From an uncultured Dehalococcoidia bacterium (GTDB lineage Bacteria > Chloroflexota > Dehalococcoidia > Lucifugimonadales > UBA1123): a stretch of 64,000 nucleotides of DNA. This document shows, piece by piece, positions 44,251-45,411 of the stretch. A model generated the notes under the pieces. That model worked only from the letters and a program-made list of their open reading frames with translations. It made no database searches and had not been told where the DNA came from. Within the stretch, counting starts at the first letter, position 1. Each line of letters starts with the position of its first letter. The translations under genes and the position numbers were made by a program. Where the stretch lies: positions 2,076-66,075 of the forward strand of contig CAZIDM010000008.1 in NCBI GenBank assembly GCA_964537915.1, given 5' to 3'.

Positions 44251-45411
44251 ATGGAGGTGGGGCCTATGACTCTGCGAGGAAGGGCGGCTGTTGTTGGGAT
44301 CGGTGAGGTCCCGACGCGCAGGCTTTTGGAGGGTCGAACCCTCTACGGGCTGTGCGCCGAAGCTGCCAAGCTGGCTATCAACGACGCCGGACTGCGCAAG
44401 CAGGACATCGACGGCCTCGTGACCGACGGCGGAACCGCGCTCGCCACGATGGCCGAGTACATTGACATCAAGCCCAACTTCGCTACCGGTGTCTCCATGC
44501 AGGGAGCCAGCGGCGCGACGGCGACCACGGTCGCCGCCAGCGCGATCAACGCCGGACTCTGTGAGACTGTGCTGGTCGTGATGGGCAACTCCCGGTCATC
44601 GGGGCCTCCCGGCGGTGGCGCGTCCGTCAGGTCCGAATGGGAGGAGCCGTACGGCATGGCTCCGGGCGCGGGCACCGGCTACGCGCTGATCTACAACCGC
44701 CACATGTACGAGTACGGCACCACGCAGGAACAGATGGCGAAGGTAGCCGCCGATCAGCGCTTCAACGCGGTCGAGAACCCCAACGCCGTATTCAACGGAC
44801 AGACTGCGACAGTGCAGGACGTCCTCAACTCCAGGTACGTCAACTACCCGCTGCGACTGCTCGAGTGCGTGATGCCTTGCGACGGCGCGGCGGCCCTGAT
44901 AATGACGACCCCCGAGCGCGCGAAGACTCTTCCGAACCGTCCGGCCTACCTGCTCGGTTCAGGGTTGGAGCAGTCCAACGCCAACATCTGGCAGACCGAC
45001 AGGATCACCACAACTCCCGTCGCCACCAGCGCGAAGCGGGCGTTCAACATGGCGGGGTACGCTCCGGCGGACATGCAGTTCGCCGAGTTCTACGATTGAT
45101 ACACCATCCTCGTGGCCGTGAGCCTCGAAGATGCCGGATTCGTTCCAAAGGGCGAGATTGGCCCGTTCTACGAGTCAACCGATACGACCTATAAAGGCAC
45201 GTTCCCCGTAAACACCGACGGCGGACAGCTCTCGGGCGGACAGCCCGGACTCGCCGGGGGATTCAGACACGTCATTGAAGGCGCCCGACAGGTTATGGGC
45301 AAAGCCGGGGTCAGGCAGGTACCCCGAAACGACTTATGTATGGTGAATGGTTGAGGCGGCACGGCGAGCGAAATGTGCTCGCTGGTCCTCGGGTCCGAGG
45401 ACACACTCTAA
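44251..45411 (+). CDS. SCP2-type thiolase-like protein interrupted by two in-frame TGA codons (Sec-recoded enzyme or recent pseudogene)
   Basis: Track ORFs 44251-45099 and 45112-45354 are in one frame. Read through TGA 45097 and TGA 45352, the frame gives 386 codons ending at TAA 45409-45411, a normal thiolase length. 'AEFYD-TGA-YTILVAVSLEDAGF...PVNTDGGQLSGGQPGLAGG' aligns with SCP2-thiolase 'ELHDCFS...E.LG...N.sGGl.s.GHP'. Confidence 0.6.
45105..45133 (+). promoter_or_regulatory. Stem-loop 6 nt after the first thiolase UGA (SECIS-like candidate)
   Basis: CAUCCUCG-u-GGC-CGUGA-GCC-u-CGAAGAUG. The 8-position outer stem has one C/A mismatch, the inner stem is 3 bp, and the apical loop CGUGA lies ~17 nt from the UGA. 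Confidence 0.35.
45362..45402 (+). promoter_or_regulatory. Two back-to-back stem-loops after the second thiolase UGA
   Basis: CGGCGAGC-GAAAUGU-GCUCGCUG (8 bp incl. one G-U) then GUCCUCG-GGUC-CGAGGAC (7 bp). The loops lie ~16 and ~37 nt from the UGA. The second could equally be a terminator stem, as TAA follows at 45409. Confidence 0.3.

Follow-up and report, generated by a model that had tools for sequence, protein, structure and literature searches.

A thiolase-fold gene of Dehalococcoidia with two conserved in-frame UGA codons, predicted to encode a selenoprotein

In a 64,000-nucleotide (nt) stretch of DNA from an uncultured Dehalococcoidia bacterium (contig CAZIDM010000008.1; the whole stretch is referred to here as the window), a thiolase-like gene on the forward strand is interrupted by two in-frame TGA codons and is followed by a gene for a DUF35 protein. 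An earlier note on this DNA had offered two explanations: a repurposed thiolase fold in a selenocysteine (Sec)-dependent variant, or a gene inactivated only recently. We favor the Sec-dependent variant because the TGAs are conserved, the sequence downstream of them is under purifying selection, homologues carry Cys at the first of the two columns, and conserved hairpins fitting the Sec insertion sequence (SECIS) follow the codons. On these comparative grounds, the gene very probably encodes a selenoprotein of the thiolase superfamily in which both UGAs are decoded as Sec. Taken site by site, Sec is predicted with high confidence at the first UGA and with somewhat lower, still good confidence at the second. 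Retro-aldolase chemistry, judged by analogy with characterised enzymes, is about evenly balanced between right and wrong.

Translation confirmed that positions 44251–45411 form a single frame, which runs through TGA 45097–45099 (codon 283) and TGA 45352–45354 (codon 368) and ends at TAA 45409–45411, as the earlier note had read it. Of the 386-codon protein proposed there, the frame stands but the start probably does not. Because a GGAGGTG motif lies 6 nt upstream of ATG 44266 and homologues begin with MTLRG or MSLRG, matching a start at this codon, the real start is more likely ATG 44266 than ATG 44251, which shortens the protein to 381 codons. Residue numbers (U283, U368 and others) are counted from ATG 44251 throughout; U283 and U368 become residues 278 and 363 from ATG 44266. 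Gene callers, both in the window and in databases, split the gene into pieces of 277–282 and 80 amino acids (aa). Family-like sequence nevertheless persists past each TGA, as had been claimed: the match to Pfam Thiolase_C_1 (PF22691) covers residues 241–381 and spans both TGAs, and the 18-residue tail after the second TGA completes the last beta-strand of this domain (profile positions to 143/144).

Conservation of the two TGA columns was assessed in related DNA comprising 80 loci from species-representative genomes (Dehalococcoidia, SAR202 and Chloroflexota metagenome-assembled genomes (MAGs), many of them complete chromosomes) plus 5 metagenome loci. Including the window, 93 gene copies with 62–98% amino-acid identity were readable at both columns. 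The pair of codons is TGA/TGA in 62 copies, TGC or TGT followed by TGA in 30, and GCA/AAC (Ala/Asn) in a single one. Complete chromosomes with the TGA/TGA form include OZ247432.1, OY762210.1 and OZ220685.1. Column 2 is accordingly TGA in 92 of the 93 copies, never TAA or TAG, and the second TGA is followed in every related copy by 18 in-frame codons (GGTASEMCSLVLGSExxL). Column 1 is TGC or TGT in 31 copies, one of which is cut by a contig end before column 2, and at least four exchanges between Sec and Cys at this column are required on a neighbor-joining (NJ) tree. Identical TGAs are found in independent assemblies, including long-read complete MAG chromosomes, Tara and UBA MAGs, one single-cell genome, and JGI, ENA and Logan contigs.

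The same two breakpoints are visible in protein databases. A search of about 5.8 billion proteins was performed and the best 120 clusters were taken. Among these, 35 break off exactly at '...EFYD' (column 1); a further 71 pass column 1 with a Cys and break off exactly at '...VNG' (column 2). Only 6 are full length; column 2 is Asn in all of them, and column 1 is Cys, Ala or Pro. In a wider sample of the family, made up of 150 representatives at 50% identity, column 1 holds Cys in 59 sequences, Ala in 26 and Ser in 23; at column 2, 28 sequences have Asn, 15 Thr, 12 Ser and 1 Cys, with Gln and other residues also present. Across these comparisons, the expectation of orthologues with Cys or TGA at both columns was borne out at column 1 (TGA in 62 copies, Cys in 31, Ala in one); at column 2 it held for TGA (92 of 93) and almost never for Cys. 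A Cys/Sec pair is thus found at site 1 only.

The only homologue found with Cys at column 2 (P0137, 'HTCGG') has Ala at column 1 ('IYDATTI'), a pattern that looks as if the acid/base residue can occupy either of the two positions. In one clade (loci L070, L072, L078, L081 and L083–L086), the thiolase-like gene is duplicated in tandem, with the second copy about 1750 nt downstream and usually both copies TGA/TGA. The single Ala/Asn copy noted above (GCA/AAC) is the second copy at locus L071 (8609–8864); it retains the sequence of the last hairpin (H2, described below), which suggests a recent loss of Sec. Finally, locus L067 (CAZGYG010000163.1, 1170–1223) is the sole copy whose terminal stop is TGA. 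Its contig is 1.5 kb long and its bin is labelled Rhodospirillaceae, so that the copy is probably Chloroflexota DNA placed in the wrong bin.

Coding constraint extends beyond both TGAs. Among related copies, the ratio of proportional nonsynonymous to synonymous differences (pN/pS) is 0.35 over the 45 codons that precede TGA-1; it is 0.155 over the 84 codons separating the two TGAs and 0.31 over the tail of 18 codons. Relaxed selection, which had been named as the sign of a pseudogene, is therefore absent, as neither downstream value exceeds the upstream one, and the related copies contain no indels, frameshifts or extra stops. Both the codons between the TGAs and the tail are under purifying selection. 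At tail codons 1 and 3 the third positions vary freely (1.5–1.6 bits), with the residues fixed as Gly and Thr. Synonymous divergence is 0.33 in the tail versus 0.73–0.76 elsewhere. The in-frame UGAs are thus conserved among orthologues, with coding continuing downstream. TGA is also the commonest ordinary stop in the window, ending 19 of 35 long open reading frames (ORFs), and the genetic code is therefore not reassigned. No other UGA-interrupted gene was found in the window, where extensions past TGA stops looked non-coding, although the filter used, continuity of GC content at third codon positions, failed to pick up even the known case.

Each TGA is followed by hairpins, and all three described previously (45105–45133, 45362–45384 and 45385–45402, the last with a GGUC loop) were recovered exactly where they had been placed. 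The bacterial SECIS (bSECIS) consensus requires a loop of 3–9 nt with a G in its first two positions, a stem of 4–16 bp, a distance from UGA to loop of 16–37 nt, and a minimum free energy (MFE) of −7.5 kcal/mol or lower (PMC13188914). The hairpin after UGA-1 satisfies all of these constraints. All TGA-type copies share the sequence 'UGA UAC ACN AUN CUC GYG GCC GUG WGC CUS GAR GAY', with an apical loop of CGUGA or CGUGU 17 nt past the UGA. All 34 distinct TGA-type sequences contain the motif GCCGTG.GCC, and none of the 28 Cys-type sequences does. Likewise, third-position entropy at codons 4, 6, 7 and 8 past the UGA is zero in the TGA class versus 1.4–1.9 bits in the Cys class, and the codons flanking the hairpin vary freely in both classes. 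The folding energy is −8.5 kcal/mol in the TGA class and −1.2 kcal/mol in the Cys class, and a compensatory change is seen at stem pair 16–30, which is GC in 24 sequences and CG in 10.

After UGA-2, two consecutive hairpins, H1 and H2, were identified, and the 60-nt region past the codon folds at z = −2.8. H1 has the same spacing from its UGA as the site-1 hairpin and may serve as a spacer or as the lower part of a SECIS; in other clades it is replaced by alternative hairpins of different sequence that still fold. H2 is the best SECIS candidate for site 2. At its pair 36–49, 34 sequences have CG and 32 have UA, and the NJ tree calls for at least eight changes of state; the codons CTC and GAG in its region are invariant. 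Both hairpin motifs are lacking from three Asn-type control genes. With respect to the bSECIS consensus, the fit is therefore complete at site 1, and at site 2 it holds for H2, at the very end of the permitted range, and fails for H1.

To place the protein among characterised enzymes, solved structures were searched with phmmer. The top match, 9myr_A (E = 2.5e-81), comes ahead of 4u4e, 7yvy and 6ok1 (Ltp2), and a sequence match of about 1e-81 to a crystal structure settles the fold. In the structure 9MYR, CtSal, the retro-aldolase for bile acids from Comamonas testosteroni, is seen in complex with its hydratase's DUF35 domain (PMC12329534). The catalytic motif of CtSal, Y-D-C-Y, supplies both the base, Tyr302, and the acid, Cys304, and the variants C304A, C304S and C304H are inactive; the position of the thiolase nucleophile is occupied by Gly89, the thiolate is stabilised by Gln347 and Gln352, and the oxyanion hole is formed by the Gly391 backbone and the Gln161 side chain (PMC12329534). 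Residues were mapped from CtSal to the window protein using the phmmer alignment to 9myr_A, with the numbering offset checked on four residues.

In this alignment, Y302-D-C304-Y of CtSal corresponds to Y281-D282-U283-Y284: the Tyr, the Asp and the second Tyr are identical, the UGA codon falls on the Cys, and close homologues read YDCY. This agrees with the earlier assignment of the first TGA to the Cys of an HDCF-type loop and aligns it with the catalytic acid Cys304. Gly89 corresponds to G85, and Gln347 and Gln352 to Q326 and Q331, so that the Gly and both Gln residues of Sal are present. T389-G390-G391 corresponds to U368-G369-G370, which puts U368 two residues before the Gly391 equivalent. 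The second TGA had been assigned to the CxG region of classical thiolases, and a profile of 128 full-length representatives aligned with E. coli AtoB indeed places U368 on the Cys of C-x-G and YDUY on NEAF (hhalign probability 97–98%, with low local confidence at the loop); this placement of U368 agrees with the Gly391 mapping. Two shallow alignments (A1 and A4, hhalign probability 11–16%) had put the AtoB Cys on C363 and are superseded by the 128-sequence profile.

The degenerate catalytic positions are as described before, with 'QGASG' (Gly) at the nucleophile position and 'GQP' (Gln) in place of GHP; Gly is found at the nucleophile position in 134 of 142 representatives. The window protein shares its fold with SCP2-type and classical thiolases such as E. 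coli AtoB (HDCF, CxS, GHP, CxG), with U283 at the Cys of the HDCF/NEAF loop and U368 at the Cys of CxG, which are the two alternative acid/base positions of real thiolases. Unlike these enzymes, it has G85 instead of the nucleophilic Cys of CxS and Gln instead of the His of GHP, and thiolytic Claisen chemistry is therefore impossible. Its homology shows it to be a member of the nucleophile-less thiolase-fold branch that contains the DUF35-dependent retro-aldolases Sal and Ltp2. The likeness to DUF35-partnered aldolases pointed out in the earlier note is thus upheld, with the nearest characterised relative being of the Sal type (YDCY) rather than the Ltp2 type (YDHF plus Tyr344). More specifically, Ltp2–ChsH2(DUF35), the steroid C3 side-chain aldolase of Thermomonospora curvata (PDB 6OK1), also has a thiolase fold without nucleophilic Cys and a DUF35 partner, and its base Tyr294 aligns with Y281. 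However, the His position of its YDHF motif is UGA or Cys here, Sec being predicted in the window protein, and its acid Tyr344 is aligned to a non-Tyr residue, Leu in the window protein ('QPGLAGG'). NCBIfam returned sub-threshold hits to thiolase families only, and no selenoprotein model.

The resemblance to CtSal thus includes the thiolase fold, Gly at the nucleophile position, the place of the Y-D-C-Y motif (Y-D-U-Y here), both Gln residues, the oxyanion Gly391 (G370) and, judging by the gene downstream, a probable DUF35 partner such as CtSal depends on. The two differ in that Cys304 is replaced by a predicted Sec, Thr389 by a predicted second Sec and Gln161 by Ala. Furthermore, the DUF35 protein is here a free-standing Cys4 protein, whereas in the Sal system it is a Cys3His domain fused to the hydratase (Shy), and the steroid-degradation gene context was not found in the window or the related loci. 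The DUF35 gene reported to follow at 45562 is confirmed by Pfam zf-ChsH2 and OB_ChsH2_C. Neighbor clustering over 83 loci identified it as the only conserved neighbor, directly downstream of the thiolase-like gene in 73 of them, and the window protein most likely forms a complex with its product. As all neighbors other than DUF35 vary, the substrate cannot be inferred from context.

Based on this alignment, the first Sec is predicted to replace the essential catalytic Cys and the second to sit in the oxyanion-hole loop, and a mechanism can be proposed. The hairpin 45105–45133 for UGA-1 and the region 45362–45402 (H1 and H2) for UGA-2 would recruit SelB carrying Sec-tRNA(Sec), and translation would end at TAA 45409–45411 after both UGAs are decoded. 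By analogy with CtSal, the enzyme would cleave or form a C–C bond in a 3-hydroxyacyl-CoA, with Tyr281 acting as base on the beta-hydroxyl and Sec283, at the position of CtSal Cys304, protonating the acyl-CoA enolate. Sec368, in the oxyanion-hole loop at the position of the classical CxG Cys, may provide a second proton-transfer or redox-active residue near the substrate alpha-carbon.

Compared to selenoproteins decoded by SelB and SECIS, such as E. coli FdhF, the gene has the expected arrangement, in which the UGA immediately precedes a hairpin within the coding region whose small apical loop, 16–37 nt downstream, contains G/U, and it has Cys homologues at site 1. It departs from known bacterial selenoproteins in that two Sec codons are predicted, both with a hairpin of their own, and the protein has no thioredoxin-like character and is no obvious redox enzyme, and in that its second Sec would replace Asn or Thr, not Cys. 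Support for Sec machinery comes from the literature at the level of the lineage and supports the use of Sec by this group. Two Dehalococcoidia MAGs, with 49 and 46 selenoproteins, rank among the most selenoprotein-rich bacteria in BSepDB (PMC13326102), and in Aplysina aerophoba three SAR202-affiliated symbiont bins carry SelA and SelB COGs (PMC5649159, Table S4).

Several observations weigh against decoding of both UGAs as Sec, or against the proposed chemistry. Since column-2 homologues carry Asn, Thr, Ser or Gln and a single one of the 150 representatives has Cys, the Cys/Sec pair is nearly absent at site 2. The loop of H2 lies at the upper bSECIS limit of 37 nt, and the loop of H1 has no G in its first two positions. 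The Asn-type paralogue at L071, which adjoins a Sec-type copy, also carries the H2 sequence, and two of the three Asn-type controls form another hairpin at the same L-G-S codons; part of H2 may thus reflect the L-G-S-E codons. The single-sequence fold at site 1 is unexceptional (z = −1.2), its support being comparative. Searches for selA, selB, selD and tRNA-Sec (tblastn with E. coli SelA, SelB and SelD; ARAGORN) found none in the window plus about 1.05 Mb of related loci, and tRNA and Rfam scans of the 64-kb window returned nothing; because less than 1% of each genome was sampled, missing sel genes are expected by chance. In addition, the oxyanion-hole Gln161 of CtSal is Ala140 here, and no conserved catabolic operon surrounds the gene at the 83 loci.

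Some of these points favor read-through without Sec, in which a near-cognate tRNA, stimulated by the hairpins, would insert Trp, Cys or Arg, or a mixed case in which only UGA-1 encodes Sec and UGA-2 is a leaky stop giving short and long isoforms: column-2 homologues have no Cys, the spacing of H2 is at the limit of the SECIS model, and Sec machinery was not found in the sampled DNA. To our knowledge, efficient SECIS-independent read-through of UGA as a conserved route to a full-length enzyme is not an established bacterial mechanism. The explanation also leaves aside that the codon is always TGA and never another stop in the 92 copies, that the tail completing the last Thiolase_C_1 beta-strand is strongly conserved, and that compensatory changes and frozen synonymous sites are seen at site 2 as at site 1, where Cys homologues exist. 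Moreover, the lineage is among the most selenoprotein-rich bacteria reported (PMC13326102). We consider such read-through unlikely. A gene split into separately made 277-aa, 80-aa and tail pieces that assemble afterwards, with reinitiation at GTG 45112, is far less likely again. This GTG lies four codons past UGA-1 and is used by gene callers, but no ribosome-binding site precedes it and the 18-codon tail has no plausible start. The four codons from UGA-1 to the GTG (Y-T-I-L) are invariant in amino acid and continuous with the Cys homologues (D-C-Y-T-I-L), and a break at this place would remove the very catalytic residue that is essential in CtSal.

Recent inactivation, with the TGAs as nonsense mutations in a decaying thiolase-like gene, would agree with the gene being split by gene callers and with the absence of canonical thiolase catalytic residues. 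The latter, however, is a trait of the whole Sal/Ltp2-like branch, in which the nucleophile position is Gly in nearly all representatives. Decay is further contradicted by the recurrence of the same TGA codons across loci that are not one clonal sequence, at the identities given above, and by an intact frame whose pN/pS does not rise downstream, and we regard it as hardly credible. Errors of sequencing or assembly in the window, which had only their a priori possibility to recommend them, are refuted by the same TGAs in independent assemblies from many projects and technologies. Decoding of both UGAs as Sec thus remains our preferred reading.

Table 1. Coordinates of the thiolase-like gene, its recoding signals and its DUF35 partner in the window.
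Feature	Position	Strand	Remarks
Thiolase-fold (Sal-like) coding sequence	44266..45411	+	381 codons including two UGA (predicted Sec) codons; a start at ATG 44251 adds 5 codons
Shine-Dalgarno-like GGAGGTG	44253..44259	+	6 nt 5' of ATG 44266; read from the sequence, putative function
UGA-1, predicted Sec codon	45097..45099	+	residue 283 (278 from ATG 44266), motif Y-D-U-Y
SECIS-like hairpin for UGA-1	45105..45133	+	loop CGUGA 45117-45121, 17 nt past UGA; MFE −12 kcal/mol
UGA-2, predicted Sec codon	45352..45354	+	residue 368 (363 from ATG 44266), V-N-G-U-G-G
Hairpin H1 after UGA-2	45362..45384	+	9 bp, loop AAAUG; 89.9% of cells paired (67 distinct sequences)
Hairpin H2 after UGA-2	45385..45402	+	7 bp, loop GGUC 45392-45395, 37 nt past UGA; 98.5% of cells paired
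True stop codon TAA	45409..45411	+	TAA/TAG at the same position in all related copies except one
DUF35 partner gene	45562..45987	+	Pfam zf-ChsH2 + OB_ChsH2_C; Cys4 zinc ribbon (C-x2-C...C-x2-C) + OB fold; 150 nt downstream

The other neighbors in the window encode a Uma2 nuclease, a VWA protein, a nucleoside hydrolase and an HpcH aldolase. The Uma2-family endonuclease gene (43367–44053, reverse strand) lies directly upstream of the thiolase-like gene. Slaby et al. (2017) list Uma2 (COG4636) in their Table S4 as one of the COGs enriched in sponge symbionts, and its presence is consistent with a sponge-symbiont origin of the window. In several close relatives (loci L001, L002 and L004), the pair formed by the thiolase-like and DUF35 genes is found among transposase (IS66, DDE_Tnp_1 and DDE_3) and toxin-antitoxin (PIN/PhdYeFM) genes, and the wider neighborhood differs by genome. 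The window also contains three copies of a repeated intergenic element, GGGGAGAGGGCTGGGGTGAGGGTGA, at 45459–45493 (forward strand), 38828–38852 (reverse) and 56799–56823 (reverse), with two mismatches at most and none expected by chance. The copy at 45459–45493, in the spacer between the thiolase-like and DUF35 genes, forms the palindrome CCCCCTCTCC TGG GGGAGAGGG, and the element looks like a REP-type element.

We could not find a description of a thiolase-fold selenoprotein of this kind in the literature or inventories searched. The word 'thiolase' is absent from the text of a 2026 inventory of prokaryotic selenoproteins, a 2022 review, the GOS selenoproteome paper and the BSepDB paper (PMC13326102; this covers the text of the paper, not the full BSepDB family list), and a full-text literature search combining selenoprotein or Sec-containing with thiolase yielded nothing relevant. 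In NCBI, the truncated product is named 'thiolase family protein'. Database entries are truncated to about 277 or to 366–372 residues in 106 of the 120 closest protein clusters, which means that annotation of the gene is systematically wrong in SAR202, a group ranking among the most abundant bacteria of the deep ocean and of sponges.

Taken together, we think it fairly probable that the gene represents a selenoprotein family that is new, has no precedent in the thiolase superfamily and is found widely among marine and sponge-associated Dehalococcoidia of the SAR202 type. Sec would act in it as a general acid/base in acyl-CoA C–C chemistry and not as a redox center, with two Sec residues, or Cys and Sec, at both alternative thiolase acid/base positions, flanking the substrate alpha-carbon. 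The paired Sec/Sec or Cys/Sec residues might act as a two-base proton relay or as a selenenylsulfide/diselenide switch. Since Cys/Sec and Asn/Sec variants coexist in nature, the advantage of Sec is directly testable. The hairpins, for their part, offer two SECIS examples for a poorly characterised phylum. With few exceptions, the bacterial selenoproteins known so far are redox enzymes, and many of them have thioredoxin-like folds. If our reading is true, Sec at the catalytic acid of a thiolase-fold, aldolase-like enzyme would widen the chemistry for which selenium is selected, with a second Sec added at the classical thiolase Cys position.

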